Shown here: positions 3,272-32,116 of the stretch, piece by piece
How the letters are laid out: the number at the start of each line of letters is the position of its first letter
Numbering within the stretch: the stretch's first letter is position 1
Assembly: GCF_058153355.1 (NCBI RefSeq)
Contig: NZ_CM177019.1
Strand: one strand, 5' to 3'
DNA: 64,000 bases
Notes under the pieces: model-generated
Database searches by the model: none
Seen by the model: the letters and a program-made list of their open reading frames with translations, nothing else
What the model was told of the DNA's origin: nothing
Translations under genes and position numbers: made by a program

Positions 3272-4726
3272 TTACCGGAACGGCGGTTCATTAAAGGTTC
3301 GTAATTTACGTGAATGCAGTCGGTCGCCTTCTGCGCGCAGCAAATCGATCGCCCGAATGCCAATTTGCAGGTGTTCGGAAATAGCGCCTTCATAAAAACG
3401 GTTAGCCTGACCGGGAAGTTTAATCTCACCATGCAACGGTTTATCTGAAACACACAGTAGTGTCCCGTATGGCACGCGGAAACGATATCCTTGCGCGGCA
3501 ATGGTTGCACTTTCCATATCAATTGCTACGGCCCGGCTTAAGTTAAAACGAAGTGCAGAAGCTGAGTAACGTAATTCCCAGTTCCTGTCATCTGTGGTTA
3601 CCACAGTGCCAGTACGTAGCCGCTGTTTAACTTCCTCTCCGGGCCTGCCGCTGACTAACTTGGTAGCGTCATAAAGCGCACGTTGCACTTCAGCAATGCT
3701 CGGAATAGGAATATCGGGCGGCAGTACCGCATCAAGAACGTGGTCATCGCGTAAATAAGCGTGTGCAAGTACATAATCTCCAATGGCCTGGCTTTCACGT
3801 AAGCCACCACAGTGACCAATCATCAACCAGACATCCGGGCGCAGCACCGCCAGATGATCGCAGATGGTTTTAGCATTTGACGGTCCCACGCCAATATTCA
3901 CCAGAGTAATACCCTGACCATCGGCGGTAATTAAATGCCATGCTGGCATCTGGTGTTTTTTCCATGCAAGGTCGGAAATGGCTTCTTCTGGCGCTTCGGT
4001 TTCGGCGGTGATCCAGTTCCCGCCAGCACAAGAAAGGGCAATGTAGGGACTATCAGGGTCGAGGATCTGGCTGCATCCCCAACGAACGAATTCATCCACA
4101 TAACGTGTGTAGTTGGTAAACAAGACGAACGGCTGAAAATGTTCAACTGGCGTACCGGTATAATGGCGCAACCGCGCGAGGGAAAAATCGACGCGGCGCG
4201 CATCAAAATGCGATAGCGGGGAGAATTCCGTTGGATGATAAATGCCGTCTGCAGTTTCATCGCCAATTTGCGCCAGTTCTGTTGTCGGGAAGTAGCGAGT
4301 TAATCCAGCGCTCATTGAGCGATCAAGTGTCAATTCAGAGCCATCGATGACATAAGGATAAGGGATTTCATGCTGCGAGGGTTGCACCGAGATATGCGCA
4401 CCATAATCCTGATACAGCAACGTAAGTTGTTCATTCAGATACGAACGAAAGAGAGTAGGGCGAGTAATCGTGGTGGTGTAGCTGCCTGCGTGGGTAAAAC
4501 GACCAAATGCGCGCGTTTTGGGGGGATTTGTTGTGCTACCGTCCCAGGTTACGGTCAGTGATGGATAGACAAAAAGACCTTCTTTACGGGCATTTTCATC
4601 AGGTAATTCGCCACTTTTAATATAGTTGCCAATGGCATTGCGTAAAGCGACTACAGATTGCTCATACAGCGCGTCGAGTTTTTCCAGTGCCTGAGCTGGG
4701 GTCAGACCGGAGCCCTTATTATTCAT
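3272..4726 (-). CDS. amn: AMP nucleosidase
   Basis: ORF 3272-4882 contains the Amn sequence from internal Met (MNNKGSGLTPAQALEKLDALYEQ); start placed at that Met (484 aa). Confidence 0.85.
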   Translation of the reverse strand: MNNKGSGLTPAQALEKLDALYEQSVVALRNAIGNYIKSGELPDENARKEGLFVYPSLTVTWDGSTTNPPKTRAFGRFTHAGSYTTTITRPTLFRSYLNEQLTLLYQDYGAHISVQPSQHEIPYPYVIDGSELTLDRSMSAGLTRYFPTTELAQIGDETADGIYHPTEFSPLSHFDARRVDFSLARLRHYTGTPVEHFQPFVLFTNYTRYVDEFVRWGCSQILDPDSPYIALSCAGGNWITAETEAPEEAISDLAWKKHQMPAWHLITADGQGITLVNIGVGPSNAKTICDHLAVLRPDVWLMIGHCGGLRESQAIGDYVLAHAYLRDDHVLDAVLPPDIPIPSIAEVQRALYDATKLVSGRPGEEVKQRLRTGTVVTTDDRNWELRYSASALRFNLSRAVAIDMESATIAAQGYRFRVPYGTLLCVSDKPLHGEIKLPGQANRFYEGAISEHLQIGIRAIDLLRAEGDRLHSRKLRTFNEPPFR

Positions 4727-4827
4727 GTGTGTCTCCTGTTCCATACAATTACCGCACTTCCGATAGTATGTCACAGGAATGTGAAACAAAAGTGTAAGGC
4801 GAAGATCGGATGATCTTCGCCAGGCTA

Positions 4828-6144
4828 TTAAGCGCGTTGATTGTCTTTCATCAACAAAGCGGTCATTGCGGAAATCAGGCATCCAGCCAGTAAATAAATG
4901 GCGACGCTATGCCAGTTCCCGGCAAAGTAAGTGATAAGTGCAGCGGCAATGAAAGGTGTAAATCCACCGCCAACCACACTGGCAACCTGATATCCGATTC
5001 CAGCACCACTGTAGCGATAACTGGCACCAAACATTTCGGTAAACATCGGTTGTTGCACGCACACCACCATGTCATGCGCAATGTTTGCCAGCATTATGGA
5101 GAAGAAAACTATCCAGAAAATGGATTGTGCTTCAAGCGCCATAAAGAAAGGAAATGCGCTCAACGTTCCGATTAACGCACCTGTGATATAAACTCTGCGG
5201 CGACCAAAACGATCGGCAAGCCAGGCAAAACAGGGAATTGTCAGACAGCTTAGTCCACCTACCAGCAAACCAATATTGAGGAAAAGTTCGCGCGGTAACC
5301 CCATATTCTGGGTTGAATAATTAAGTGCGAAGGCGGTAACGATGTACATCGTCAGCAACTCGCACAGTCGTAGCGCAATAATCTTCAGAAAAGCACCGGG
5401 ATGTCGTAACAGTGCTTCGATAACCGGGATGCGTTTTTGCGCTGCCGCTTGATTATGTTGCTGTTGTTCAAATTCCGCGGACTCCTCCATGCCATTACGC
5501 ACCCACAATGCCCCCAGTACCAGTACGATGCTAAACAGGAAAGGAATGCGCCAGCCCCAGCTTAAAAACTGTTCGTCAGTCGTCATCATACTGATCAATG
5601 AAACCAGTCCGGTCGAAAGCAGTAAACCTACTCCGTAGCCAACTTGTACACCGCTACTGTAAAAGGCTTTTTTATTTTTCGGTGCACTTTCAACGGAAAG
5701 TAACGCCGCGCCTCCCCATTCGCCGCCGACAGCAAATCCCTGAATGGCACGCAGCGTCACCAGTAAAATGGGGGCCCACCACCCAATAGTCGAGAATGAA
5801 GGAAGAATACCAATCAAGGCTGTCGCGATACCCATCATCCAGACGGTCAGCATTAACATGCGCTTACGTCCCAGTCGGTCGCCAAAGTGACCGAAAATGA
5901 CACCGCCGAGCGGACGGAACAGGAATCCGACACCAAAGGTGGCAAATGCGGCGAGCGTTCCCATAGCCGGGCTTACTTGCGGGAAAAACTCGCGATTAAA
6001 CACCAGTGCGGCGGTAATGCCATAGAGTAAAAAATCATACCAGTCGACGACGGCACCAGCGAAACTGCCTAACGCAGCTCGTCGGGCGCGACTTAACGAA
6101 AGCGTCCCTTCATCGGGACGAGTGGAGATGAGCGTGGAGTCCAT
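4828..6144 (-). CDS. shiA: shikimate/dehydroshikimate MFS transporter
   Basis: 438-aa MFS-type ORF starting MDSTLISTRPDEGTLSLSRARR; position beside amn. Confidence 0.85.
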   Translation of the reverse strand: MDSTLISTRPDEGTLSLSRARRAALGSFAGAVVDWYDFLLYGITAALVFNREFFPQVSPAMGTLAAFATFGVGFLFRPLGGVIFGHFGDRLGRKRMLMLTVWMMGIATALIGILPSFSTIGWWAPILLVTLRAIQGFAVGGEWGGAALLSVESAPKNKKAFYSSGVQVGYGVGLLLSTGLVSLISMMTTDEQFLSWGWRIPFLFSIVLVLGALWVRNGMEESAEFEQQQHNQAAAQKRIPVIEALLRHPGAFLKIIALRLCELLTMYIVTAFALNYSTQNMGLPRELFLNIGLLVGGLSCLTIPCFAWLADRFGRRRVYITGALIGTLSAFPFFMALEAQSIFWIVFFSIMLANIAHDMVVCVQQPMFTEMFGASYRYSGAGIGYQVASVVGGGFTPFIAAALITYFAGNWHSVAIYLLAGCLISAMTALLMKDNQRA

Positions 6145-6449
6145 AATGATCCTGTTTGTACTGTCTTTTTATAATTAGTATGGAAAAGGTAACTCACATT
6201 GCCGTCGATCTATAAACGAACCTTATGAGACTACCGCGCCAGAGCGCTTCTGCAAATGATTTTATGGCTGATTAACGGCAACATGAAAAATTCGATGGAA
6301 GATGAAATCGCAGGAGTTGCATAAGGATTGAGCAGAGCACCTACAGTTTTGAGATATGAAACATAAAAGTCCGCATATGCACAAAATTGCACCCTGATGA
6401 TTCTGATAGACTGCATTGCATTATAACCAGTAGGGAGGCGAGGTTAGGT

Positions 6450-7520
6450 ATGTTTTTAGCATCATTGTTGAGACGTATTGCATTTAGTTACTACGATTAT
6501 AAAGCTAATAATTTCAATATTGAAAAAACAGAGTTTGTTGTCATCCATATTCCCGATCAGATTGGCGATGCTATGGCTATCTTTCCAGTGATTCGGGCGC
6601 TTGAATTGCATAAAATCAAGCATCTTTTAATAGTTACTTCGACAATTAATTTAGAAGTCTTTAATGCGCTCAAACTTGAACATACTAAATTAACATTAGT
6701 CACAATGACTATGCAGGATCACGCAACATTAAAAGAAATAAAAGATTTAGCGAAGAACATAACACAGCAATACGGTACGCCGGATCTTTGTATAGAGGCA
6801 ATGCGTAAAAAGAACCTGAAAACGATGTTATTTATCAGTCAGTTGAAAGCAAAAACAAATTTTCAGGTTGTTGGTTTAACCATGAAGTGCTACTCCCCTT
6901 TGTGTAAGAACGCCTCCCGGATGGATCAACATCTCCGGGCTCCCGTACCCATGACATGGGCGTTTATGATGCGTGAAGCGGGTTATCCGCCAGTCAGGCC
7001 AATATATGAATTACCATTAAGCGAGCAGGTAATAAATGAAGTACGTGAGGAATTGTGCACTTTAGGATCTTACATTGCGCTTAATTTAGATGGCAGCGTG
7101 CAGGAACGCACATTTTCGTTATCAGTAGCTGAGAAACTCATCGCCAAAATTCAAAGTGATAATGATATGCCAATAGTCATTGTTCATGGACCAAAAGGGG
7201 AAGATAAAGCCCGGAAATTAGCGGGTTGTTATAATAATGTCTACCGGCTATCCTTATCACCCTCGATTAAACGTTCAGCAGCAATCATAAAAGATGCTTA
7301 TATCGCAATAACCCCTGATACCTCAATATTACATATGGCAAGTGCCTATAATACCCCCGTCGTTGCAATTTATGCTGATTACAAAACGCGGTGGCCTGCG
7401 ATGGCAGATATCTCGGAGTCAGTGGTCGTTGGGCAAAAAATTGATCATATAAGTTTGGATGAATTCGGAAAGGCGCTAAAAAGTGCTTTGGAGAGAGTAT
7501 GTGTCAGTACTTACGTATAG
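6450..7520 (+). CDS. yeeL: glycosyltransferase family 9 (heptosyltransferase-like) protein YeeL, apparently intact
   Basis: ORF 6387-7520; start placed at internal ATG preceded by GGGAGG. Position between shiA and yeeJ. Confidence 0.6.
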   Translation: MFLASLLRRIAFSYYDYKANNFNIEKTEFVVIHIPDQIGDAMAIFPVIRALELHKIKHLLIVTSTINLEVFNALKLEHTKLTLVTMTMQDHATLKEIKDLAKNITQQYGTPDLCIEAMRKKNLKTMLFISQLKAKTNFQVVGLTMKCYSPLCKNASRMDQHLRAPVPMTWAFMMREAGYPPVRPIYELPLSEQVINEVREELCTLGSYIALNLDGSVQERTFSLSVAEKLIAKIQSDNDMPIVIVHGPKGEDKARKLAGCYNNVYRLSLSPSIKRSAAIIKDAYIAITPDTSILHMASAYNTPVVAIYADYKTRWPAMADISESVVVGQKIDHISLDEFGKALKSALERVCVSTYV

Positions 7521-7899: not shown

Positions 7900-15888
<7,989 letters not shown>

Positions 15889-16196
15889 GCTTACCTTCCC
15901 TGAACGAGCTAACATAAATGCGCCCTTTCTAGCACAGCGAAAAAATATAAATCCTGATAGCAATATGATTGAAAATTAATAACTTTTCGTTAAGCAGTTT
16001 TGGGTGTGAGTTGCAAGAGGGGAGACTACTGAATAACTCAAGTTTTATAATCGAGGGGAAAATGGTGATGGTGTCCATAGCAAAACGCCCTCAACCATAA
16101 AGATCGAGGGCGCTTAAGATGTCAAAAACCCGCTATCCGTTAAAAAGCAATGCTCAACTAAGGTCAGTGACATTGCGCTAAAAAGCGAATTTTTAG

Positions 16197-16216
16197 AATT
16201 TGGCTCCTCTGACTGG
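16197..16216. repeat. island boundary direct repeat (duplicate of tRNA-Asn 3' end, AATTTGGCTCCTCTGACTGG)
   Basis: Identical 20-mer recurs at 33537-33556, overlapping the 3' end of the minus-strand tRNA-Asn. Confidence 0.75.
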
Positions 16217-16367
16217 GATCGCCGTAGCCATTAACTGGCTGATTGGTAAGCTAAACCTAAAAGTTGGGGTTGTCAAGACCACCAGAATGACCACCTCTTT
16301 ACTTTGAAACTAACGACATATTTTACGCTCATCCCTCAGTCAATCGTAAGCTAATAAACAACACCAA

Positions 16368-16748
16368 CTACGGTGCTGGTATTATAGTCTCTGCTCCAAA
16401 CCAATTTCCAAGTGTTGTCAGTGCCGCAGGTGACAAAGCTTGGGTGAAAAGGATCGCAAGGCGCTTTTGGGGTCTGGAACAAGCGACGTAAAACAAATTT
16501 CGGTTTCGTTCAAATGAGTCTTGCTTATCGACTGGAATCGTTTGGGCTCCAGCGAATTCCAACATTTCTCCGAAGTTATACTGGTTCCACCCACGCCCAA
16601 CAACAACCAGGACATTCTCAAATTCAGCACCTTTCACACCATGTTTAGTTTCGAATGGAGAATATCCATCAAGATAACGGCGAAGTGATCTGACCTCCGA
16701 ATAGGGAATATTTTTCAGCTTTTCAAGTTCTTTTAATCTTCGGGGCAT
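16368..16748 (-). CDS. UvrD/PcrA-like SF1 helicase, C-terminal segment
   Basis: Carries helicase motif V/VI-like sequences (KGAEFENVLVV, YVACSRPQKRL); same reading frame as 16794-18122, separated by a single TAA. Confidence 0.6.
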   Translation of the reverse strand: MPRRLKELEKLKNIPYSEVRSLRRYLDGYSPFETKHGVKGAEFENVLVVVGRGWNQYNFGEMLEFAGAQTIPVDKQDSFERNRNLFYVACSRPQKRLAILFTQALSPAALTTLGNWFGAETIIPAP

Positions 16749-16793
16749 TTCAACATCAGCCGTTCTGTCAAAATGGAGTAACTCCTGCTCAAA

Positions 16794-18122
16794 TTATTCA
16801 ACCTTATCTGGAAGTCTTGGCTTCCGTTGAGCACGGATGAACTCAATTACGTCGCCAATTGTACCAGTTTCGCGGAGAGCAAGAAGTTGCGTCATTACAT
16901 TGTGCCAACTCACCTTATCTGAATGTCTACGCAACAGTGGTGTAATACCGCCAAGCGCATTAAACATCTCTCCATACTTACGAGCGGTAAAGGCATCACA
17001 GGCGGGTTCCAGTTTGTCTACAAAAAAGGCTATATGTTCATGTTCCTTTTTCGTGAAGGATTCATTGTATTTAAACGCTGCCACTATATTTGAATAGCCC
17101 TGCTGATTGGCTAAAAGTCGATGGGTCAACATGAGAATTTTGGTGTGATTGGGAGAAAAGTCCCAACCATCCTGCTCCAACGTTGTTTTAACTCGTTCCA
17201 GAGTAGCCTGGCCTTCACATAATGGTAAATCACCACTCCAGTGCACGCCTTTTTGACGAACTCCTTGCCAATTGTTTGTATGGAAAACGCGTACTAAACC
17301 TGTAGCTTCGGGATCTTTAACACACTGCGGTAGCTCAGGTCTCATACGATTAAGGGCATCAACAATTATCTTGTCCGAACGAAAATTGGCTTCTTTACCT
17401 ATTTCAACCACGTCCTGATGTTCCAGCTTTCCACATCCACCACCATAGATTTTTTGCCAATGGTCGCCGAAAAAACCAAATAAAGGTGCTCTAGCTTGTC
17501 CAAGAAAATGCCGTTTAATTGCCTCAATCCAGTTTTTATCAGTGTCCTGGTACTCATCGACCAGAATGATTGGAAAGCGTTCTGCAATCACTCTACGGAA
17601 TTTTTCGTGCTCCATGAGTGAGACAGTTAAAGAAAGAACATCGTCATGATGAAGAGTTATACGATGGTCGCGAATAGAGCGATGTCCAAGATTATACTCA
17701 ACACTACGATTCCCAAGGCTTCCACCAACTTCTTCGAGCTTTTCTGTCCATGTTGGCATTGTCTCAATCAGTTCTCTCAACGGTTTTTGAAAGCTGCTTA
17801 TTAACGACCAACAGAACGCATGATTGGTATCACAAAAAACGATGGGGCTTCGATCTGTTCGCGCGACGATTTCATCCTTCGCCACGTTAGTAAAGGTGAT
17901 GCAGGCAATTTGCTGGCTACGTTTTTCAAATAAATCCTTATTTCGCTCAATCAAGAATCGAAGTGCCTTAATAAGGGAATACGTTTTACCCGCACCAGCG
18001 CCAGCTTCCAGCCGGAAGCTTCGTCCTTCACTGAGGCAAGCATACATAGATTCCAAAGCTCGCTGGCTAGCAGCTTCGGCGGGCGAATGGATCTCAGACA
18101 TCAGCGCTGGCTCCTTCTTCAA
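16794..18122 (-). CDS. UvrD/PcrA-like SF1 helicase, N-terminal segment
   Basis: Walker A GAGAGKTY, motif II ILVDEYQDT, motif III-like FFGDHWQKIY; start overlaps the upstream OLD-family gene by 29 nt. Confidence 0.7.
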   Translation of the reverse strand: MKKEPALMSEIHSPAEAASQRALESMYACLSEGRSFRLEAGAGAGKTYSLIKALRFLIERNKDLFEKRSQQIACITFTNVAKDEIVARTDRSPIVFCDTNHAFCWSLISSFQKPLRELIETMPTWTEKLEEVGGSLGNRSVEYNLGHRSIRDHRITLHHDDVLSLTVSLMEHEKFRRVIAERFPIILVDEYQDTDKNWIEAIKRHFLGQARAPLFGFFGDHWQKIYGGGCGKLEHQDVVEIGKEANFRSDKIIVDALNRMRPELPQCVKDPEATGLVRVFHTNNWQGVRQKGVHWSGDLPLCEGQATLERVKTTLEQDGWDFSPNHTKILMLTHRLLANQQGYSNIVAAFKYNESFTKKEHEHIAFFVDKLEPACDAFTARKYGEMFNALGGITPLLRRHSDKVSWHNVMTQLLALRETGTIGDVIEFIRAQRKPRLPDKVE

Positions 18123-20166
18123 TACTAGTTGTGGCTTCTACAACTTGCGCCAATACTGGATCTTGTGTCATAAGCTCATTGCTGCCAGCTAACCAGCGGA
18201 TTCCATCGACTATGTATTTGGGGGCGTTCCATTCTGTCTCTGTAATCGCGTATTTCAATGCAAATTCTGATTTTTTCCACTCAGACGCTTTATCACGGGC
18301 TTCTATTTCCAGTTCCTGAGAATTTCTCCCTACCAGCCCGAATAAAGCCGAATTTGCAAGGATAAATGCATCTTCGAATGTGCGTCCGCAGGGGCCATCT
18401 GTCACTTCTGCACATTGATAGGCAATACGATTTCCATTACGAGCTTTATCATCGTCACTCCTGGCAATCAAACCAGCTAATGTGAAAGGGGTATCTTCAG
18501 AGAACCATGCTTTCAAACAAGCATTACTGGAATATGTACCAAGATGAACAGCACATGCCTGACCTCCTGCTCTTTGGACTGCGTCCAGATCTGTTATGAT
18601 CAGACTCTGAAGCTCAAGAAACGCTAATAACTCGAAGAACAAATGAGCGTAAGCACCGCCGACTTCCATCACCGTTGCGTACTGGCTCGACAGCTTCGGT
18701 CTCTCTGGTTCGGCTGATTCTAGTTTTTTGATGATGACGGGAAGCAATAATCGCTCGCTTAACCCCTCGACGAGAATCGCTTTATCTGCGAAAAACAGAT
18801 CACAACGTGTCAACGTCATGTATTGATGAAGGAATTTTTTATCTTCAATTAGAATATGATTCAGCCCTTTACGCAGATCTTTAATTTTGGTTTTTCGGAC
18901 ACCTTCCTGAGTCCCCTGTGCTGGAGCCCCCAGAAAATAGCGAATACTCTCGAAACCAGCCGCATTGGCAATGTGAGACGAGTGTGTAGACACGACAAAT
19001 TGTACAGGCCAGGGTCTCCTGTCCTCAGTGCCATCCACCAGTTGTTGTGCAATTTTGGCAAGTTGACGAATAAAAACCTCCTGCATTTGTGGATGCAGAT
19101 GGGCTTCTGGTTCTTCAATGAATATCAGGTGTACACCCGGCTCAGTAACTTCAGCACAAAATGCTTTATAGAAACCAGCTAATTGCAAGAGAATAAATAT
19201 CAGATTACGTGTACCAAGACCGTTATATGACTCCGGTAATGCGATTCCGCTATAACCTGAATAGCGAACTTTCGTGAAGTTTGATAGCAACTTGCTAACA
19301 TCGAGCAATGTTTCAGTATGTAACTCCTGTCCTCCCAATCCTGGGTATCCAAAAGTTTCTAGAGCCGGAATCAGACTGTTGAGCTGGTTTCCGAAGTTTG
19401 TGTCAATTTGAGTCTGAATGTCCTGAACTGCACCTTTCAATGCATCAGCAATTTGTTTATCAGCAGCTCCCGCAGATGCCGAAGAGGCTGTTGCGAAAAG
19501 ATTTTCAACCGTTTTAGCCAGTACATCGGATTCTCGGGACGTCACATCATCAAGTCCTCGCTGAGCGTTGATAAAGCCCGATTTGACCAGACCGCGCAAT
19601 GCACTAGGTGGTAACTCGCGACGATTATCAGGATCGTTGGGATCTTCAGCCCATATTTTCACACAGAAATTATTAGGGATACGTTCTCGCAATATACGGA
19701 GGAAAGCGAGGCGGTCTTCTCTAGAAAGTGGCATTTCAGTCTGACTTTCGAGAAATTGTGTCAGATGGCCATCTTTCAATTCGTATCGGACTACTACCTG
19801 CGCTTCAGAACACGCGGGATCCAAATCGATAACAAAGGGACTCAATGGACCTAATTGAGGTTGTGCAGGGTCGTACTGGAATTTCAGTCGAAGTTCAATG
19901 GCGGGAATAAGTTCTCGAACGAGATGATCTTCCATGCCTTCCTTAAGTGCTTCCAGAACATCACAAAAACGGTCGTAGCAGGAACTGGAAAAGTCTTCAA
20001 GTTGGAAAGTAGCACTACCATCTGCTAAGAATCTGCGTATTATTTCTGAGAGTGATGTTTTTCCGCTGTTGTTTCGTCCAACAATGACGGTCGTCTGTTC
20101 CTCCAATACAAGCTCTGCATCAGCTAAAAGACGGAAGTTTTTAATTTCGACCTGATGAATGTGCAT
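18094..20166 (-). CDS. OLD-family ATP-dependent endonuclease (ABC ATPase plus TOPRIM), GajA-like
   Basis: 690 aa; Walker A GRNNSGKTS, Walker B/D-loop LIFIEEPEAHLHP, H-loop STHSSH, TOPRIM-like AILVEGLSE and ITDLD. Confidence 0.7.
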   Translation of the reverse strand: MHIHQVEIKNFRLLADAELVLEEQTTVIVGRNNSGKTSLSEIIRRFLADGSATFQLEDFSSSCYDRFCDVLEALKEGMEDHLVRELIPAIELRLKFQYDPAQPQLGPLSPFVIDLDPACSEAQVVVRYELKDGHLTQFLESQTEMPLSREDRLAFLRILRERIPNNFCVKIWAEDPNDPDNRRELPPSALRGLVKSGFINAQRGLDDVTSRESDVLAKTVENLFATASSASAGAADKQIADALKGAVQDIQTQIDTNFGNQLNSLIPALETFGYPGLGGQELHTETLLDVSKLLSNFTKVRYSGYSGIALPESYNGLGTRNLIFILLQLAGFYKAFCAEVTEPGVHLIFIEEPEAHLHPQMQEVFIRQLAKIAQQLVDGTEDRRPWPVQFVVSTHSSHIANAAGFESIRYFLGAPAQGTQEGVRKTKIKDLRKGLNHILIEDKKFLHQYMTLTRCDLFFADKAILVEGLSERLLLPVIIKKLESAEPERPKLSSQYATVMEVGGAYAHLFFELLAFLELQSLIITDLDAVQRAGGQACAVHLGTYSSNACLKAWFSEDTPFTLAGLIARSDDDKARNGNRIAYQCAEVTDGPCGRTFEDAFILANSALFGLVGRNSQELEIEARDKASEWKKSEFALKYAITETEWNAPKYIVDGIRWLAGSNELMTQDPVLAQVVEATTSIEEGASADV

Positions 20167-20303
20167 ATGTCCCTCATGATCTATTTATAGTCTATCGATA
20201 AATCTGATGTTATTGCTCTACCTGTAATTTTCATTCTTACGATTGTTTTGCAATGCAAAATATACCTCAGGCCATATTTATTCCTGAGGTATGTTTTGGT
20301 ATC

Positions 20304-21824
20304 TCACTCGGTCAAAGAGGCCTCACGAACATCATCCGGTTGAGGTTGGCACTCTTTCCATCGTCGAATAAGCGTTGCTACACAGGGATTACCCGCCAGT
20401 TGATTCATTCTGACCCAGTCAACATCCACTAATCCAGCCAGAAGTTCAGGATTTAGTTCCCCTTGTAATGGGTGCCACTGGCGAATACTGGGCTGGCGCT
20501 GAATTTGAGGTTGAAGGGGAGCCAAACTCCCGACGATAACGTAATTTTGTTCTGGATCATGCCAGAGTCGTGTAATGCCAGGTATGTTTTTCAACCAGTT
20601 TCGAGGATCACCTAAAGGTAAATCAAAAACACGAGAGAGTAATTTATTCCATGACGCTATTAATGACGAACTGGCTTTCTTTGCCAATTTTTTCTCACCT
20701 GCCAGGAGTGCATTTTTTCTTTCTGGCCATTTGGAAAAAATATAACTTTTTAAAATATCGTAGGTAACATTAAGTTCATTATTGTAATAATACTCACGCA
20801 AAGCACAATTCCACAACTCGCACAGCAAGTCTAGTTCACGCATGAGTGTATTTTTATTGGTATCTGATAATTCACCTTCCTCATTAAGTTGCGCTATATA
20901 AAAAGACAGTATCTTTGTATCTGGTAAGAGCCAGTGGTTTAGTGAGAACTGCTGACTTTGAGTATCAAGAACAGTCATTAATGCATCTAAATTCTCAGGG
21001 ATCATATTAGGGGTGTCGTATTTCGGATCCTGAAGAAGAATGGATATTTCTTCCATTCTATGAATAATTATTGTCAATCTCTGAGCAAATCTGGTTAATT
21101 TATCTTCACTGCTGCCAAAACCTTGCGCTATTGATTCAGGCCGATAAGTATAAGGCCATTTTTTATTTAAGAGAGTAAGAAGAGCCTCGACAGAGGTATC
21201 AAACAGTTTCAGCCTTTCATCGCAGGCTTTAACTAAATCCGGGCAAGAAGGATTAAAAGGTAAAATTACTGGGCGGTCTTGTTCAGCGGTGAATAAATAT
21301 CCTTCGGTGATAACCAATAGGTCATGAGTCAGTAAGTCTTTCTGTTCTGTCAGGCTTGTACTGATTCTTGTTTCTTTGCAAAGTAAAAGATGCTTCAACG
21401 CAAGTTCTTTGTACGCAACTTCGGTATTACGCGCCAATGCATCAAGACAGGTCTTTTTCTCAAGATCTTGAATGGCATAGTCGTAATAGCAAGAATCTAT
21501 CGCAGGGATGAGTCGGGTAGTCCCATCGGGAGTATCCTGCTCAATCAATAAATTATCAACAACAGAATCACCACTAAGATCAAACGGATTAACGTTGATA
21601 TGCTGGCACGCAATTTTAGTTCTTAGATTCTGAGTTAACGGATAGCGGTCATCAATTATACCACGGATCTGATCTAACAAAACAAGTATGCATATAGAGC
21701 TGTCTTTTTCCAATTTTTCAAATGATGAGGGTTCTGAATCCGGTAATAATTCCAGCTGTACATCAGGATACTTTTTGTTCAACACCTTTTGTATCTGCGC
21801 ACTTCCCCGTGAAACCCGGGTCAT
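20304..21824 (-). CDS. hypothetical protein, no recognisable motif; 5' end lies in IS66-derived sequence
   Basis: Long ORF (track 20304-22004); only in-frame Met codons are inside the IS66 tnpC remnant, so the native N-terminus is probably lost. Confidence 0.4.
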
Positions 21825-22843
21825 CCAACCGGAAGAAGAATGCTGCCCGGCCTGTGGTGGCGGGCTCAGTCCTCTGGGATGTGATGTGTCAGAACAACTG
21901 GAGCTTATCAGCAGCGCCTTTAAGGTTATCGAAACACAACGTCCGAAACTGGCCTGTTGCCGGTGCGACCATATCGTGCAGGCTCCGGTGCCTTCAAAAC
22001 CCATTGCACGCAGTTATGCCGGAGCGGGGCTTCTGGCCCATGTTGTCGCTGGAAAATATGCAGACCATCTGCCGTTATACCGCCAGTCAGAAATATACCG
22101 TCGTCAGGGCGTGGAGCTGAGCCGTGCCACACTGGGGCGCTGGACAGGTGCTGTTGCTGAACTGCTGGAACCGCTGTATGACATCCTGCGCCAGTATGTG
22201 CTGATGCCCGGTAAAGTCCATGCCGATGATATCCCCGTTCCGGTCCAGGAGCCGGGCAGCGGTAAAACAAGGACTGCCCGGCTGTGGGTCTACGTTCGTG
22301 ATGACCGTAACGCCGGTTCGGAAATGCCTCCGGCGGTCTGGTTCGCGTACAGCCCGGACCGGAAAGGTATCCATCCACAGAATCATCTGGCCGGTTACAG
22401 CGGAGTGCTTCAGGCCGATGCTTACGGTGGTTACCGGGCGTTGTACGAATCCGGCAGAATAACGGAAGCCGCATGTATGGCTCATGCCCGGAGAAAAATC
22501 CACGATGTGCATGCAAGAGTGCCCACCGACATCACCACGGAAGCCCTGCAGCGTATCGGTGAACTGTATGCCATCGAGGCAGAGGTCCGGGGCTGTTCAG
22601 CAGAACAGCGTCTGGCGGCAAGAAAAGCCAGAGCCGCGCCACTGATGCAGTCACTGTATGACTGGATACAGCAACAGATGAAAACACTGTCGCGTCACTC
22701 GGACACGGCAAAAGCGTTCGCATACCTGCTGAAACAGTGGGATGCACTGAACGTGTACTGCAGTAATGGCTGGGTGGAAATCGACAACAACATCGCAGAG
22801 AACGCCTTACGGGGAGTGGCCGTAGGCCGGAAAAACTGGCTCT

Positions 22844-24667
22844 GTGTGTCACGAAGGAGTACTTATGGCAACAATGTGAAAATTGCAGCATAAGTTATCC
22901 ATGCTCTGAGGTGGGTGGAGGTGGGCCCTCCGGTCAGGGTTTACAGGAGCACTGACCAAACGACCCGGTGCTGCTTCATTCTAAGGAATGAGGTGGTGAG
23001 CGACTCGGGAAAAGGCAGAGATCTACTGTCACGTGGGGTTCGGGAAGCTGAACGAAAGTAAACTGTCCGATGAAGCATCGAAATCTTAGATGATGTCAAA
23101 ATGGGGCCGTACAGCCGTCCCCTGATAAGCGCAGAAGACACCTGCTTACTGACTGCGCGGCATCCGGTGTGAAGGCAGCAGGATCCCGGGCCAGACCATC
23201 TCAGGGAACGTGAGAACCTGTTTCCGGCACGTATCGGGAAACAGGGGCGGACCCATTCGTAGTAGTGATGAAAGATCTGTAATGGGTCTGGAGCGAAGGG
23301 ATGGGGATCACATTCATTGCAGAAGACACAACCCAAAAGGGGATGACGTAACTGATGCAACGAAAATCATTTGAAATACCAAAAGCACTGGTCTGGGCAT
23401 CATATCTGGATGTGCGTCGCAACAAGGGAGCCCCCGGATGCGACGGGCAGACTTTGAAAATGTTCGACCAGCAACGTGATGGCAATCTATACAAGATCTG
23501 GAACCGGCTATGTTCGGGAACATGGTTTCCGCCACCAGTGCTGGAAAAACGGATCCCGAAGTCGAATGGCAAGGAACGCATTCTGGGGATCCCAACAGTA
23601 TCCGATCGAATTGCTCAGGGAGCGATAAAACTTTTCATGGAAGAAAAGCTTGACCCGATTTTCCATGCTGATTCATATGGTTACCGACCAGGCAAATCAG
23701 CTCATGACGCTCTGAAACAATGTGCCATCCGGTGCTGGCGTTATAGCTGGATACTGGAAGTGGACATCAGTGCGTTTTTCGACCATGTGAGACATGATCT
23801 GGTGCTCAAAGCTCTGGAACACCACGGGATGCCTAAATGGGTCATCCTGTACTGTCGACGCTGGATGGAAGCGCCAATGCAGAGTTGTGAAAATGGAGAA
23901 TTAATAACCCGAACACGAGGCACTCCGCAGGGCGGGGTCATTAGTCCACTACTTGCTAACTTGTTCCTTCACTATGCATTTGATTTGTGGATGGAAAGAG
24001 AATATCGGGGGGTACCGTTTGAGAGGTACGCTGACGATATTGTAGTACATTGTTCACGAATGAGTGATGCAACAAGGCTGAAGAACAGGTTATCGGAGCG
24101 CTTCTCGGAAGTCGGGCTGGTCCTGAATGCAGGGAAAACGAATATCGCCTACATTGACACGTTTAAAAGGAGAAACGTCGCAACGAGTTTCACCTTTCTC
24201 GGATATGACTTCAAAGTGCGTACGCTGAAGAATTTCAAAGGCGAACTGTACCGAAAATGCATGCCGGGTGCGTCAAATGCAGCAATGCGCAAAATAACAG
24301 AAACAATCAAGAAGTGGCGTATACATCGCTCAACAGCTGAGAGTTTGCTGGATTTTGCGAGGCGCTACAATGCGATAGTGAGAGGCTGGATCGAGTACTA
24401 CGGAAAGTTCTGGTCCAGAAATTTCAACTATCGACTGTGGAGTGCAATGCAGTCACGTCTGCTCAAGTGGATGCAGTCTAAATACAGACTTTCGAACCGG
24501 AAGGCTCAGCGAAAGCTGACGCTGGTAAGGAAGGAGTATCCGAAGCTATTTGTTCACTGGTATTTACTACGTGCATCAAATGAGTGATCAAGAGCCGTAT
24601 GACGCGAGAGTGTCACGTACGGTTCCGTGAGCAGCCGGGGAGTGAAATTCTCTCCGGCTGACTCGAC
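22844..24667 (+). mobile_element. group II intron (~1.8 kb) with intron-encoded reverse transcriptase
   Basis: 5' GTGTG start; domain V-like GAGCCGTATGACGCGAGAGTGTCACGTACGGTTC near 3' end; joining the flanks restores the TnpC frame (KNWL-FAGSDSGG). Confidence 0.7.
23355..24587 (+). CDS. group II intron reverse transcriptase/maturase
   Basis: 410 aa with RT motifs including YADD and a C-terminal maturase-like region. Confidence 0.8.
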   Translation: MQRKSFEIPKALVWASYLDVRRNKGAPGCDGQTLKMFDQQRDGNLYKIWNRLCSGTWFPPPVLEKRIPKSNGKERILGIPTVSDRIAQGAIKLFMEEKLDPIFHADSYGYRPGKSAHDALKQCAIRCWRYSWILEVDISAFFDHVRHDLVLKALEHHGMPKWVILYCRRWMEAPMQSCENGELITRTRGTPQGGVISPLLANLFLHYAFDLWMEREYRGVPFERYADDIVVHCSRMSDATRLKNRLSERFSEVGLVLNAGKTNIAYIDTFKRRNVATSFTFLGYDFKVRTLKNFKGELYRKCMPGASNAAMRKITETIKKWRIHRSTAESLLDFARRYNAIVRGWIEYYGKFWSRNFNYRLWSAMQSRLLKWMQSKYRLSNRKAQRKLTLVRKEYPKLFVHWYLLRASNE

Positions 24668-24852
24668 TCGCAGGTTCCGACAGCGGTGGCGAACATGCGG
24701 CGGTGTTGTACTCGCTGATCGGCACATGCCGTCTGAACAATGTGGGGCCAGAAAAATGGCTGCGTTACGTCATTGAGCATATCCAGGACTGGCCGGCAAA
24801 CCGGGTACGCGATCTGTTGCCCTGGAAAGTTGATCTGAGCTCTCAGTAAATA

Positions 24853-26796
24853 TCAATACGGTTCTGGCGAGCCGCTTACGTTTAATCGGGAAATCTCATA
24901 TTTTCGGTTCATCATTAATGGCAGAAGGAAGCGTTGATGCTGTTGACGAGAAATTTCACCAGCACGGAGCAGTTTTTCTAGGTTGCGTAACTGGAAACCC
25001 GCATGCGCCATATCATCATTGTTCTCTGTATTGGCCTGAAAAGCGGAAAAGTAATAATGCCGTGATTCCAGCAAATATAAACAGGTCAGATCCATATTTT
25101 TGCCAGATTCAGGCAGGCTGAAATCCAGATTCACACCATTCGTCGCAGAGGCGGTCTGAGTCAGCACAATGACAATACGCCGGGAGGCAAATGCGGCCTG
25201 ATAAGCATCACTAAAGCCCTTTTTCTTCTGACATTCTGCGGTTAACAGACAAATCAGCGCAGGCTCATTATGTATGCTCACTGGGATAAACACATCAGCA
25301 AAATTTTTTAGTAGAGGATCATCAGATAAAGGTTGTTCCATTTTTAACCATGCGAGGTATTCTCTACTTTGTGTTGCTATTGTAGTGGTAAGCCATTTTC
25401 TTAAATAGGCTATGGAATTCACGAAAGCAAGATGCCCCCGGTGTTGAGGTCTTTTTCCCGCAAGATCCAATACATTAAGCAATTTTAGCAGTATATTTTT
25501 TCGATATTCTGATTCGAAATCTGATGAGGGGTCATCGCCATTCTGGAAAAAATCGGGGGCTAGCGAAGCGAGCAGATCAACACAATGCGGGTTATTCTTT
25601 ATGCTATTGAAATCTTGAATCTCAGCATTCAGTTGTGTGTTTCTGATATTTTCTTTGCTGTTATTGATCTCTTCAATAGCTAAATACTGCAACTGGAAAT
25701 CATCAGCCGTCTGGACATAAGGTATCGGTTCTTTAAACCACTCGACAGGTCGTTTTTCAAAAGTTGTTCCCAGAAAACTTTGTGTAACAGCAGGGTTGCG
25801 TGCTTCTGCAATATAACGAAGAGCTGAATTAATCCACCGGACATCGAAGTGATTACAGGCTCTTTCAATATATGACGTAGCCGACAGTGCAAAGACAAGA
25901 TTACGACTGGCGAGAGAAAGCAGCAGACCTTCTGCCGTCGTGGGCAGAAAGGCACGTTTGATCTGTATCCGTAACGGATCGATATCCGTATCTGAGACAT
26001 TCTGTTTCAGCAACCAATTGGTCAAGCCAAAAATACTGGCATGAGTATTTGGCAAAATATTACTTTTCCTTAATTCCCGTAGTTCCGGCAGGTCAGTACG
26101 CGGTAACAAAAATCGGGACATATTGGGCAGGGTTGAGCCGTAGTATGAAGGCCTGTAATCATTAACGGGGTCGAACAGAAGTCGGGTTAACTTTTTAATG
26201 TATTCATACGCTTCATCTTCACTTGCAGTCAGGTCGGTCAACATTAGGCTAAACTGTCGAATGAATTTTTCCATCAAGCGTAAAAAATCACTGATGTCGA
26301 TAGTCTGATCGCTATCCTGAAGCGGAGAGTCTGGCCTGATAATTTCGTATCCATGTTCCGCTTTCCGCATAATAAGCCGTTCACTGGTCACCAGTTGATC
26401 GGAACGGAATAAATAATGCTCACCAAAGGGTTTATTATCCAGATATTGCTGAAGAGGAATAACCAGCGATCTGGCATGTGTTAAATCAGCATGTTTTTCT
26501 GTTAATGCACTATCCAGATCATTAATAAATTTTTCTAGACGTTCACGGATCATAGGTGCAGGTTCCATTTCAACATACTGCATACGTTGTAGTAATCTGC
26601 GTCCCCCGTCGAGCAACTGACCCAGACACTCAGGTGGTTCCTGAACCCATTGCGCCTGTGCCAGATACTCTTGTAATACCTCAGACTGGTAATCAAATTC
26701 ATCGATGAAAATGATGTAATTACGCAGCTCTTTGCTGGACATTTTTACTTTGCGACGCCCATCGTAAAACGATGAAACCATCTTTTGAGTCGTCAT
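24853..26796 (-). CDS. hypothetical large protein, downstream part of a split P-loop NTPase; Walker-B-like IIFIDEFD near N-terminus
   Basis: 647-aa ORF; stop codon lies inside the IS66 terminal repeat; starts 2 nt after the stop of 26799-27572 in another frame. Confidence 0.45.
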   Translation of the reverse strand: MTTQKMVSSFYDGRRKVKMSSKELRNYIIFIDEFDYQSEVLQEYLAQAQWVQEPPECLGQLLDGGRRLLQRMQYVEMEPAPMIRERLEKFINDLDSALTEKHADLTHARSLVIPLQQYLDNKPFGEHYLFRSDQLVTSERLIMRKAEHGYEIIRPDSPLQDSDQTIDISDFLRLMEKFIRQFSLMLTDLTASEDEAYEYIKKLTRLLFDPVNDYRPSYYGSTLPNMSRFLLPRTDLPELRELRKSNILPNTHASIFGLTNWLLKQNVSDTDIDPLRIQIKRAFLPTTAEGLLLSLASRNLVFALSATSYIERACNHFDVRWINSALRYIAEARNPAVTQSFLGTTFEKRPVEWFKEPIPYVQTADDFQLQYLAIEEINNSKENIRNTQLNAEIQDFNSIKNNPHCVDLLASLAPDFFQNGDDPSSDFESEYRKNILLKLLNVLDLAGKRPQHRGHLAFVNSIAYLRKWLTTTIATQSREYLAWLKMEQPLSDDPLLKNFADVFIPVSIHNEPALICLLTAECQKKKGFSDAYQAAFASRRIVIVLTQTASATNGVNLDFSLPESGKNMDLTCLYLLESRHYYFSAFQANTENNDDMAHAGFQLRNLEKLLRAGEISRQQHQRFLLPLMMNRKYEISRLNVSGSPEPY

Positions 26797-26798
26797 GA

Positions 26799-27572
26799 TC
26801 AGCAGGTGTTGCTTTTCGTCACGCCAGGCAATGGCGGGCAGAATGCGCCTGACCCAGACGTGGCGACGGAAATCTGCAACTCGTTGCCTGGCTTGGCTGC
26901 CTGCGTGAGTTCATGTTCTTCGCCATATTTTTCTTTTTGTTTCTTGGCTTCTTTTTCCAGCAATTTGATATTCTGAATCAGAGTTATCTCCACCGCTGCG
27001 CATGATTTGATTAATGACTCTTTCTCACTGGCGATGGCCGTCTGAAAACGCGTCGGATATCCTTTCAGCGATTTGTTAATATGCAGTATGTTTTTGCAAT
27101 TTCTACGCAATTTGTCGGCGATATCCTGAATGGCAAACAAATTTCTGTCTTCCAGGATATTGATGGAGTCAAATGGATCGGGAAGTGAGTCTGCGGAAAT
27201 ATTATTCTCATGAGGCAAGGGGGTGGCCTCGATGGCAGAAACGATCTGTTCATCTTGTGCATAGAGCACGCTGACGGTGAATGGTTCCCCGTTACTGTCT
27301 TTATGCGCTGCCGTTTTCTCATAAATGTCGTGCAAAATATTCCAGCGATGGGTAACCAGAATGGCTTGAGAGCCTGATTTTTTTATCGTCTCCAGCGCCG
27401 GGAGAGCGTTATCGGCATAGCCAGAGCGGTAGAGTGAGCTGGTTTTTCCGCTACCCGTAGGCCCCTGAAGCTGACAAAATCCTGCGATACGACGGGATGT
27501 TTTGGATTTTTTTGCCTGAGAAAGGGTGTATTCAATAACGGCATTGTAGGAACGTATTAAAGGGGCACTCAC
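26799..27572 (-). CDS. P-loop NTPase N-terminal segment (Walker A GPTGSGKTS)
   Basis: 257-aa ORF with Walker A near residue 40; low-complexity C-terminal tail suggests a frameshift into the next ORF. Confidence 0.45.
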   Translation of the reverse strand: MSAPLIRSYNAVIEYTLSQAKKSKTSRRIAGFCQLQGPTGSGKTSSLYRSGYADNALPALETIKKSGSQAILVTHRWNILHDIYEKTAAHKDSNGEPFTVSVLYAQDEQIVSAIEATPLPHENNISADSLPDPFDSINILEDRNLFAIQDIADKLRRNCKNILHINKSLKGYPTRFQTAIASEKESLIKSCAAVEITLIQNIKLLEKEAKKQKEKYGEEHELTQAAKPGNELQISVATSGSGAFCPPLPGVTKSNTC

Positions 27573-27885
27573 ATTTCACCTCATCCGTGTCAGGTTATCG
27601 AAGAGTAGAATTTCAGCAAATTCATGTTACACCGAACGGGTATCATTTCAATGTTTAATAATAATTTCCCCTTATAAAACAACGCTTATAATACATTCGC
27701 AGGTCAGATGATTTATCGGTGTGTTATTTGTTTGAATTTGGTGTTGTGGTTTTCTTTTTTTAACAATCTTCGATCTTCCTTCCACGACTTCCCCTTGCCG
27801 TTTTCAACCGAAAGCGGTATCTTTCACTTGCACCTGCAAAATCAGGTGCCGGGATTGGAACCCCGAAATGTAACCATACTGGCGA

Positions 27886-27910
27886 CACGTGACGCGTCTG
27901 CGTCTTTTTT
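27886..27910 (+). terminator. hairpin plus T-run (GACGCGTCTGCGTC-TTTTTTT)
   Basis: Short GC stem followed by seven T on the plus strand. Confidence 0.35.
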
Positions 27911-28075
27911 TATGTCGCGCGCTTAGCTACACCAAAATTATGGTGGGCTGGGCGGGGGCACCGTAAGGTGCGCCGGTTCCAGTATGGCCGGTAGTTCCAA
28001 CCTCGTTCAGTCCACCACCCATGAGATTGGAACCTCTGGTGGTGGTTTTCAAACCACATACTGGAGGCTGCCTTT

Positions 28076-28543
28076 ATGGCTACGATCCCCACTCAGACAC
28101 ACCCGTTACTTGCTGTTCCCTTCAATGCTGCCACAGATTTTACCGTACTGGCAGACCACTGTGAAAACTTCGCCGAAACCCTGATCGAAAGCGACGACCC
28201 GGTGCTGCGGCTGGCGCTTTGCGGGCGGCTTGCCGCCTGTCTGACTCTGCTGCAACCCACGCTGAACGAACCCATCCCGTCCCATCTGACTGACAGCCTG
28301 ACCGTTGATGCTCTACCTGCCGATATGCCCCGATTTGTCCCCGACGCTGAATTACTTTGTGACTACTCACTGACGCTGGCGCAACTTCTTATCGGGCAGG
28401 GGATGCTGCCAAAAATGGAGCAGACGATAACTGGCTTATTATGTGAACTGGTCTGGTATTTTGCCGCTGAAATGAAAGCCCCGCGTTGGCTGCGTACTGC
28501 CGGTGGCGTGAAGTTTATCGATGGTGTGGAGGCCAAAGCATGA
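28076..28543 (+). CDS. hypothetical protein (155 aa), translationally coupled to Ner-like gene
   Basis: ORF with no recognised motif; stop overlaps the next start. Confidence 0.4.
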   Translation: MATIPTQTHPLLAVPFNAATDFTVLADHCENFAETLIESDDPVLRLALCGRLAACLTLLQPTLNEPIPSHLTDSLTVDALPADMPRFVPDAELLCDYSLTLAQLLIGQGMLPKMEQTITGLLCELVWYFAAEMKAPRWLRTAGGVKFIDGVEAKA

Positions 28544-28746
28544 TGCAGTCTGACTGGCATCCTGCCGACATTATCGCCGGGCTGAAAAAACGTGGCACTT
28601 CGCTGTCAGCGCTTTCGCGTCAGGCTGGGCTGGCGTCCTCCACGCTGGCTAATGCGCTTACCCGCCGCTGGCCCAAAGGTGAAAGATTGATTGCCGAAGC
28701 GTTAGATGTTGCGCCTGAGAACATCTGGCCTTCGCGCTATCGCTGA
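28540..28746 (+). CDS. Ner/Nlp-family HTH DNA-binding protein
   Basis: MMQSDWHPADIIAGLKKRGTSLSALSRQAGLASSTLANAL...WPSRY resembles Nlp/Ner; start placed at internal Met of ORF 28486-28746. Confidence 0.6.
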   Translation: MMQSDWHPADIIAGLKKRGTSLSALSRQAGLASSTLANALTRRWPKGERLIAEALDVAPENIWPSRYR

Positions 28747-28892
28747 TGTCCTTCCGGCGCAGCCACGATACGGAAGCTGCGCCGCATTTCGTTTATCTGA
28801 TTTGTCATAATCCTTTGAACCGCAAAAACAGTTTTCTATTATCGGCCTTCTTACCACGAACTAAGCTCCCGCCTGTACAAAATGCTTCATGA

Positions 28893-28920
28893 CCTGAAAG
28901 AAGCGCCTGATGTATCAGGA
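28893..28920 (+). repeat. imperfect direct repeat copy 1 (CCTGAAAGAAGCGCCTG...TATCAGGA) upstream of pemI
   Basis: About 30 bp shared with a second copy at 29862-29889. Confidence 0.45.
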
Positions 28921-29093
28921 TGGTCGCCGTTTTACCGGCAATGCCGCCTTTGAAAACTGCCGGATCTGTCCTTCGATGGATTAAGGCTTTCTTCATACTT
29001 TATTACGCTAAGGAAATCACAATGAATCTGATGAATAATTGTGCATCGCCTGCCGTAGATGTTATATTAAAATATAATATTCGGAGGTGCTCT

Positions 29094-29351
29094 ATGTATA
29101 CAACTCGCCTGAAAAAGGTCGGCGGATCCATCATGCTGGCGGTTCCCCCCGCCGTGCTGAAAACGCTGGAGCTGTCGACGGACAGCGAAGTGGGTATGAC
29201 CATTGATAATGGCTGCCTGATTATTGAACCCCAGAAACGGCCCCGTTATTCGCTTGAGGAGCTGTTGGCGCAGTGCGATCCGCACGCAGAAATGAGCGAA
29301 GAGGATCGGGAATGGATTGATGCGCCTGCGGTGGGCAAGGAGATCCTGTAA
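29094..29351 (+). CDS. pemI: PemI/MazE-family antitoxin
   Basis: MYTTRLKKVGGSIMLAVPPAVLK...YSLEELLAQCDP closely resembles plasmid R100 PemI; start at internal Met of ORF 28920-29351. Confidence 0.8.
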   Translation: MYTTRLKKVGGSIMLAVPPAVLKTLELSTDSEVGMTIDNGCLIIEPQKRPRYSLEELLAQCDPHAEMSEEDREWIDAPAVGKEIL

Positions 29352-29684
29352 ATGGACAGAGGGGAAATCTGGCTGGTTTCACTGGATCCGATTGCAGGTC
29401 ACGAGCAAAGCGGAAAACGTCCGGTGCTTATCGTATCGAAGGCATCGTTTAACAAGCTGACCCGGCTACCCGTTGTTGTTCCCGTTACCAGCGGTGGAAA
29501 CTTCGCCCGTGCAGCCGGTTTTACCGTCTCACTGGACGGTGCGGGAACAAAAACAACGGGCGTTATTCGCTGCGACCAGCCCAGAACCATTGATATGGGA
29601 GCCCGGAGCGGAAAGCGACTGGAACGTATACCCGATGCTGTCGTGAATGAAGTGCTGGCCCGACTGGAGGCCATTCTGAGCTGA
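29352..29684 (+). CDS. pemK: PemK/MazF-family toxin
   Basis: MDRGEIWLVSLDPIAGHEQSGKRPVLIVS...LPVVVPVTSGGNFARAAGF closely resembles PemK. Confidence 0.85.
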   Translation: MDRGEIWLVSLDPIAGHEQSGKRPVLIVSKASFNKLTRLPVVVPVTSGGNFARAAGFTVSLDGAGTKTTGVIRCDQPRTIDMGARSGKRLERIPDAVVNEVLARLEAILS

Positions 29685-29861
29685 TGCTTTTTATGTAAAC
29701 TGAATGATGGCGCTGTCATATACAGCGCCATCATTTTTTATAACGACAAGTGATTAAAAAATCCTTTTGCAGGTAAAAACAGTTTTTCCTTTCTCCGCCA
29801 GCGGTACTGGCATAGTCTCCCCCTTGCCCTATGCTGTCGTTGACAGCGCCACGCTTCACAA

Positions 29862-29889
29862 CCTGAAAGAAGCGCCTGTTATCAGGAGG
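29862..29889 (+). repeat. imperfect direct repeat copy 2, downstream of pemK
   Basis: Matches 28893-28920 with a few mismatches; partial similarity extends ~40 bp further. Confidence 0.45.
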
Positions 29890-30119
29890 TTGAGCCCTTT
29901 ACCGGTGCAGACCTTTGCAAACACCGGGTCGCAGAACATCGCGACGGAGGCCAGAGTTTTAACACGATACGTCCTTTTACTGCGCCAGCCTGCTGGTCTG
30001 AATCTGCCCCGCGCCGGAATTTTCCCGGTCAGCTTATATTTGCTGACACCCTCAGCACCTTTTACCTCACGGGCTGCGGCATGCATTTGCCGCAAGGCAT
30101 TTGCTGACGCGTGCCCGTA

Positions 30120-30250
30120 AAACTGCACCAGACGGTAAATTTTCAGACGCTGCACCAGACCCGTGCGTCACTTTAACCGCGCAGAGCGGGAAAGTGACGC
30201 ACGCAATCCCTTTCGACCTGCACCAGAAAACTCAACTGCGCCAGCTCACG
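30120..30250 (-). repeat. array of CTGCACCAG/CTGCGCCAG motifs upstream of the recombinase gene
   Basis: At least four copies near 30123, 30149, 30220 and 30238, in opposite orientation to the array at 31618-31881. Confidence 0.45.
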
Positions 30251-31423: not shown

Positions 31424-31446
31424 TAGCTTCAGACTTGCAATATGAT

Positions 31447-32005: not shown

Positions 32006-32055
32006 TTTCCGATTAATAACCCAAAAGTTGAAGATAAATCCTTTCAATGTAAAAA

Positions 32056-32088: not shown

Positions 32089-32116
32089 ATTCTTAACAAA
32101 TCATATTGCTACTGGC

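Follow-up and report, generated by a model that had tools for sequence, protein, structure and literature searches.

The stretch of DNA analysed here, which we refer to as the window, comprises 64 000 nucleotides of contig NZ_CM177019.1 (RefSeq assembly GCF_058153355.1). The gene yeeL lies in it between shiA and yeeJ, 305 bp from shiA, and the gene order amn-shiA-yeeL-yeeJ matches that of K-12 (yeeJ-yeeL-shiA-amn) in the opposite direction. The genes, the sites within yeeL that are discussed below and the features of an adjoining island are listed in Table 1. The GC content of yeeL is about 0.40, compared with about 0.49 in the flanks; low GC is typical of surface-polysaccharide genes.

Table 1. 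Features of the window, with positions counted from its first nucleotide
Feature	Position	Strand	Basis or remark
amn	3272-4882	-	Flanking gene
shiA, shikimate transporter	4828-6144	-	ORF, annotation; divergent neighbour of yeeL that fixes the synteny
5' extension of the yeeL ORF (TTG 6387 to ATG 6450), probable leader	6387-6449	+	Homologue starts, sequence
yeeL CDS, intact, predicted family-9 (GT-B) glycosyltransferase	6450-7520	+	356 aa plus TAG
Gly39-Asp40 of the invariant IPDQIGDAM motif, proposed catalytic base	6564-6569	+	27 homologues, hhalign
Divergent middle segment of yeeL (gene positions ~480-780)	~6930-7230	+	Sliding identity
yeeL codon 235, CAA (Gln) here, TAA in K-12 and B strains	7152-7154	+	Alignment, translations
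Asp290-Thr-Ser-Ile-Leu-His295, putative nucleotide-sugar binding motif of the C-terminal domain	7317-7334	+	hhalign against WaaC
yeeJ, inverse autotransporter adhesin, long variant, intact	7900-15963	-	ORF, K-12 and O157 annotation; convergent with yeeL
GajB of a Gabija defence pair	16794-18122		
GajA of a Gabija defence pair	18094-20166		
566-aa ORF in island	20304-22004	-	
IS66 transposase	21688-22893		
Group II intron reverse transcriptase/maturase	23355-24587		
647-aa ORF in island	24853-26796	-	
257-aa ORF in island	26799-27572	-	
Second integrase-like gene	30536-31423		
Integrase adjoining the asnT tRNA	32117-33481		

The ORF listing of the window contains an uninterrupted frame of 377 codons that spans yeeL from a TTG at 6387 to a TAG stop at 7518-7520, as an earlier note on this DNA had stated, and no ORF of more than 61 amino acids overlaps it in any other frame. 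The note had given the span as 6387-7520. [quoted passage not shown] We favour this start because 26 of 26 aligned homologues begin at, or a few residues from, the methionine encoded there, because a GAGG ribosome-binding site (6440-6443) precedes it with a spacing of 6 nt and because the RefSeq annotation of strain MFDS1022581, the closest complete genome, has an equivalent CDS of 1071 bp. The first 21 codons of the longer frame are probably an untranslated leader; it holds a GGGAGG (6433-6438) as well as the GAGG. By a rough estimate, in which about 6% of random codons are stops at 40% GC, the chance of a 356-codon open frame is about 1e-9 or lower. Intact homologues align with the frame over its full length, and the frame contains none of the internal stops, frameshifts or truncations that mark a pseudogene.

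Two observations concern the region on the far side of yeeL. The first is that yeeJ is an uninterrupted ORF of 8064 bp in the window, compared with 7020 bp in K-12, to which it is 87% identical over the distal half. Length variants of yeeJ have been described, and the length found here resembles that of the longer UMN026-type variant (PMC5595812). The second is an island of about 17 kb (16216-33536) that K-12 lacks and that lies between yeeJ and the tRNA-Asn gene asnT (33541-33616). The GajB of its Gabija pair may be truncated, as the ORF spans only positions 4-435 of the 579 in the profile. The 566-, 647- and 257-aa ORFs gave no match in Pfam or PADLOC. They could be uncharacterized defence genes, since they adjoin the Gabija pair in an integrase-bounded island, although the ORF of 566 aa partly coincides with that of the IS66 transposase, which is encoded on the opposite strand, and may not be a genuine gene.

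Chromosomal position and a colinear alignment of high identity identify the window gene as the orthologue of K-12 yeeL. The alignment is ungapped within the gene, with 90.1% nucleotide identity over 1071 nt and about 90% identity at the amino-acid level, and the K-12 copy contains neither a frameshift nor an insertion. A single base in codon 235 separates the two reading frames: where the window reads ATT CAA AGT, K-12 reads ATT TAA AGT. This nonsense codon, Q235*, divides the K-12 gene into ORFs of 234 and 108 amino acids. In MG1655 the locus (b4497, earlier split as b1979 and b1980; NC_000913.3, 2052276-2053328) is flagged as a pseudogene in RefSeq. The earlier note had described yeeL as a split pseudogene in K-12 and had proposed the alignment as a check; K-12 proves to carry TAA at codon 235 and not the same intact ORF, so that this description was correct. 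The pseudogene status of K-12 yeeL, the gene itself and the protein are already in public annotation. What is added here is precision: the lesion is Q235*, it belongs to one haplotype and its frequency among complete E. coli genomes is about 14%.

That figure comes from a survey of 5426 complete E. coli genomes. yeeL DNA is present in 5270 of them (97%), with a match that covers at least 80% of the query in 4934. Alleles were counted with 55-mers in which the variant base occupies position 28, an arrangement that forces each 28-nt megablast seed to include it. The CAA 55-mer matches 4149 genomes and the TAA 55-mer 771; the latter include K-12 derivatives, members of the B lineage and isolates of human, duck, pig-farm, frog, chicken and river origin. 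The roughly 350 yeeL-matching genomes outside both counts hold divergent alleles (like that of the window), truncations and an IS1 insertion. If the K-12 stop were a laboratory or sequencing artefact, there would be no true difference between K-12 and the window, but the identical TAA recurs in these 771 independent complete assemblies, among them E. coli B lineages and varied isolates; a 234-aa YeeL fragment is called on 734 contigs, and PGAP labels yeeL with an 'internal stop' in the duck isolate HL15 and in the B strain ATCC 11303. We regard an artefact as next to impossible.

The intact gene is the ordinary state in E. coli and is no special trait of this window. Intact 350-aa alleles are annotated by PGAP in AR_0061, O157:H7 F8952, SaT040, 1428, 266917_2 and elppa9. 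Other lesions also occur: strain C7 has an IS1 insertion, and copies that are truncated or incomplete are found in both E. coli and Shigella sonnei. Outside the species, codon 235 encodes Lys in an Escherichia-type lineage with a homologue that is 74% identical and Gln in E. albertii (65%). The sense codon in these relatives, together with the preponderance of CAA, supports the view that intact yeeL is the ancestral and majority state and that the K-12 state is derived. The yeeL genes of K-12 and HL15 are identical over 1050 nt, which suggests a single and fairly recent origin for the TAA haplotype.

The earlier note had gone further and suggested that the window might carry the ancestral form of the gene. 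This holds for its intactness but not for the allele itself. With 90.1% nucleotide identity to K-12, yeeL is far less similar than amn (97.7%) and shiA (96.6%), and alleles that are at least 99% identical to it were found in only three of 5271 matching records, with a further 103 at 95-99%. Much of the difference lies in the middle segment of about 300 bp (Table 1), whose identity to mainstream E. coli alleles is about 80%, compared with 92-99% elsewhere in the gene. dS is 0.64-0.9 over codons 151-270 and 0.12-0.25 elsewhere. The likeliest explanation, judged from sequence comparison, is a recombinational import of this segment from an unsampled divergent allele. The 74%-identical Escherichia-type lineage was considered as its source and ruled out, being only about 69% identical there. 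In addition, the usual TGA stop is TGT in the window, which adds six codons at the C-terminus. The allele is thus a rare mosaic haplotype, about 10% divergent, from which the K-12 allele does not descend directly; the nearest intact counterparts of the K-12 allele are the 350-aa alleles of, for example, AR_0061 and O157:H7. A protein identical over all 356 residues has an NCBI entry (EGO8354089.1, named 'lipopolysaccharide heptosyltransferase family protein [Escherichia coli]') and occurs on only two contigs of the protein collection. We also note that the best match to the first 8 kb of the window among the 5426 complete RefSeq E. coli genomes is 98.4%. The source lineage looks somewhat divergent within E. 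coli, as judged from the identities of amn and shiA to K-12.

The K-12 branch has accumulated ten synonymous and seven non-synonymous single-base changes, the stop included. Of these, A117G, L143I, K146N, Y148F, L211F and S270P fall at conserved positions, and at codon 157 two steps that are each scored as synonymous jointly turn Arg to Ser (R157S). These substitutions at family-conserved sites belong to the K-12/B haplotype and are absent from intact alleles; the window allele has the consensus residue at all of them. By comparison, the branch leading to the intact AR_0061 allele shows eight synonymous and two non-synonymous changes. The numbers are small, but the pattern on the K-12 branch would be consistent with relaxed constraint and decay after inactivation.

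As to the nature of the protein, YeeL matches the Pfam family PF01075 (Glyco_transf_9) with an E value of 3.2e-7 and a score of 30.4 bits (gathering cut-off, 22), the match covering residues 230-320 only. An AlphaFold model built from 27 homologues has a pLDDT of 84.7 and a pTM of 0.84, with low confidence for residues 142-162; it shows the two Rossmann domains of a GT-B fold and is closest to solved GT9 enzymes. By fold and family YeeL is a GT-B, family-9 glycosyltransferase, and its activity is predicted from these. A single-sequence search of the PDB sequences returned nothing at E <= 1. In a profile search the top matches were alphaRep artificial repeat proteins, which we rejected as spurious since their similarity is confined to the short motif IGD..P.I..L; the matches ranked after them were WaaC and WaaF. 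YeeL gave no match in PADLOC.

Fifty-two positions are invariant among the intact homologues, which come from Escherichia, Pseudocitrobacter, Erwinia, Rosenbergiella and Halomonas. The residues expected of a GT9 active site are among the conserved ones: Gly39-Asp40, Arg220, Asp290, Thr291 and His295 are unchanged in all 27 homologues. In the hhalign alignments the GD at 39-40 pairs with the GD of WaaU, and Asp290, His295 and Arg220 (window 7107-7109) pair with Asp261, His266 and Lys192, respectively, of WaaC. We take Asp40 to be the counterpart of WaaC Asp13 in the N-terminal GD motif of GT9; the roles given here to the WaaC residues follow the structural literature on that enzyme. Two cysteines, Cys114 and Cys147, are also invariant, and the N-terminal domain carries a conserved basic stretch, EAMRKKNLKT.

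Beyond E. coli, the homologues are single genes in unrelated contexts. The E. albertii gene lies in a tonB-yciA context, that of the 74%-identical Escherichia-type lineage in a hchA-mtfA context and that of another enterobacterium in a maeB-eut context, with the Rosenbergiella and Halomonas genes at other sites again. In Erwinia aphidicola (CP188307.1; 7800-12400 of the stretch examined) a homologue of 61% identity sits within a P2-like prophage. It is flanked by the tail sheath/tube genes and the tail-fibre gene and is encoded on the strand opposite to them, at a place where accessory cargo genes sit; we take this position to be the Z/fun lysogenic-conversion locus of P2. When 50 697 deposited phage genomes were searched with tblastn, no homologue of YeeL was returned, and the idea of prophage cargo accordingly rests on the one Erwinia prophage. 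Matches in plasmid records were not taken as evidence for a plasmid-borne yeeL: those of 85-91% are in records of several hundred kilobases or several megabases, some of them chromosome-like in length, one further match is a fragment beside an IS4-family transposase, and the weak matches are other GT9 proteins.

Is the gene functional where it is intact? When yeeL is compared with K-12, with the nearest allele and with the 74%-identical homologue, dN/dS is 0.15, 0.14 and 0.086, respectively; between genera dS is saturated. On these sequence-based estimates yeeL is under purifying selection (dN/dS 0.09-0.15). It could instead be a silent relic, non-functional or unexpressed in all E. coli, which in this window has merely not yet gained a stop. 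Such a relic would account for the literature, in which we found no experiment or paper that assigns YeeL a function or a phenotype and yeeL is used only as a landmark or integration site. It would also fit the repeated inactivation of the gene by the TAA allele, IS1 and truncation, and the outcome of a promoter and terminator scan upstream of yeeL, in which matches were no more frequent than in shuffled sequence and no convincing sigma-70 promoter was seen. A relic, however, would not be expected to maintain so low a dN/dS across a large divergence, nor to keep 52 invariant columns, the expected catalytic residues included, across five genera; the changes in intact lineages are moreover mostly synonymous (8:2 for AR_0061), as against the seven non-synonymous changes on the K-12 branch, small though these numbers are. 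We therefore consider a relic very unlikely. The enzyme looks functional and conserved across Enterobacterales, and the best overall explanation, to which we assign a probability of roughly 0.85, is that the window carries an intact, functional allele of a family-9 glycosyltransferase gene for which K-12, B and, among complete genomes of the species, about 14% are null through Q235*.

What such an enzyme might modify is less certain. The obvious guess is the product of the neighbouring gene: YeeL could be a dedicated protein glycosyltransferase that heptosylates the YeeJ passenger in the cytoplasm, after the manner of Aah with AIDA-I and TibC with TibA. The distribution of the two genes gives this no support. 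yeeL and yeeJ are convergent, so they are not co-transcribed and do not form one operon. In K-12 and B yeeJ is intact and yeeL is dead, and in K-12 YeeJ is nevertheless surface-exposed, active and biofilm-promoting (PMC5595812). The reverse is found in SaT040, 1428, 266917_2 and elppa9, in which an intact yeeL stands beside a decayed yeeJ, and in AR_0061, where the yeeJ site holds only a small pseudogene fragment. yeeL DNA is present in 5270 of 5426 genomes, compared with an intact yeeJ in about 40% of the 96 genomes surveyed in the YeeJ study, which makes no mention of yeeL or of glycosylation (PMC5595812). Homologues of YeeL in six other lineages have no inverse-autotransporter neighbour in the contigs examined. 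The co-orientation and co-inheritance that characterize pairs of the Aah/TibC type are thus lacking, and we think it unlikely that YeeJ is the substrate.

As a separate observation, the integrity of yeeL and that of yeeJ look inversely related at the sampled junctions, in a small sample that is not corrected for phylogeny. Among the sampled strains both genes are intact only in O157:H7, MFDS1022581 and the window. That the two are rarely intact together (eight strains), taken with the Erwinia prophage homologue, is a hint of a link to phage receptors or to adhesin display.

Our preferred reading of YeeL as a functional family-9 enzyme leads to the following proposal. The stand-alone gene would encode a cytoplasmic inverting GT-B enzyme, whose C-terminal domain would bind a nucleotide-sugar, most likely ADP-heptose, through Arg220 and the motif D290-T-S-x-x-H295. 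The donor is uncertain because GT9 also includes GlcNAc-transferases. Asp40 of the N-terminal GD would deprotonate a hydroxyl of the acceptor, which would be held by the N-terminal domain. The acceptor would most likely be a sugar of the LPS core, to which YeeL may add a side-branch that is accessory and not essential, comparable to the product of WaaU/RfaK. The basic stretch EAMRKKNLKT would suit an acceptor with negative charge, as the LPS core has, and an accessory core side-branch transferase would fit the WaaU-like full-length match, the low GC and the dispensability of the gene. Against an LPS role, yeeL lies outside the waa cluster and adjoins an adhesin gene. We infer donor, acceptor and LPS role alike, and would give an accessory LPS-core glycosyltransferase about an even chance; an adhesin role receives only a small share, and the remainder goes to other acceptors.

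Should YeeL be a transferase for the LPS core or another surface glycan, its loss in K-12 and B might also alter the cell surface, a suggestion which we regard as speculative and rather doubtful. If it is true, the standard laboratory strains are natural nulls for a widespread envelope modification of E. coli. Studies of phage receptors or of LPS that use K-12 or B are in any case carried out in a natural yeeL null, and metabolic engineers who use K-12 employ the yeeL locus as a neutral site of integration.

Comparison with known proteins places YeeL as follows. The intact 350-aa E. coli alleles (WP_000477906.1 and WP_000480501.1), which are annotated as 'glycosyltransferase family 9 protein', share with the window allele the shiA/yeeJ locus, the domain and the conserved motifs. 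The LPS-core heptosyltransferases WaaU, WaaF and WaaC come nearest to YeeL, and the adhesin heptosyltransferase TibC is more distant. A clear structural gap lies between the bacterial autotransporter heptosyltransferases TibC and Aah (PDB entry 4RAP) and the LPS enzymes, and the YeeL family profile gives no sequence hit to TibC; neither by sequence nor by structure does YeeL belong to the TibC/Aah group, a group marked by an iron-binding cysteine cluster and dodecameric assembly. The gene arrangements also differ: the genes for Aah and TibC are upstream of, and co-transcribed with, the adhesin gene, whereas yeeL is convergent with yeeJ.

The inner-core heptosyltransferases I and II, WaaC (PDB entries 2GT1, 2H1H and 6DFE) and WaaF (PDB entry 1PSW), have 13-16% identity to YeeL. 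WaaC can be aligned with it only over the C-terminal domain, the N-terminal acceptor domain not being alignable by sequence. The NCBIfam models for heptosyltransferases I, II and III and RfaQ score YeeL far below their cut-offs (TIGR02193, 36.4 bits against 185.3; TIGR02195, 20.5 against 134.6; TIGR02201, 16.9 against 170.2; NF007742, 15.4 against 467), so that it is not an orthologue of any characterized LPS enzyme. Its location between shiA and yeeJ is likewise remote from the K-12 waa cluster at 3.79-3.81 Mb.

The best profile match is WaaU (RfaK), the putative LPS outer-core heptosyltransferase IV of K-12 and a member of GT9. The hhalign alignment pairs residues 27-351 of YeeL with 35-351 of WaaU at an E value of 4e-6 and a probability of 87%, a probability at which we claim a relationship at the level of the family and not orthology. 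The sequence identity is only about 20%, and yeeL, unlike waaU, is outside the waa cluster. The two proteins are nevertheless of very similar length (357 amino acids for WaaU, 356 for YeeL), and they have in common the N-terminal GD and the C-terminal motif D-T-x-x-x-H-x-A-x-A-Y-x-x-P; these sequence likenesses support the family-level relationship between YeeL and WaaU.
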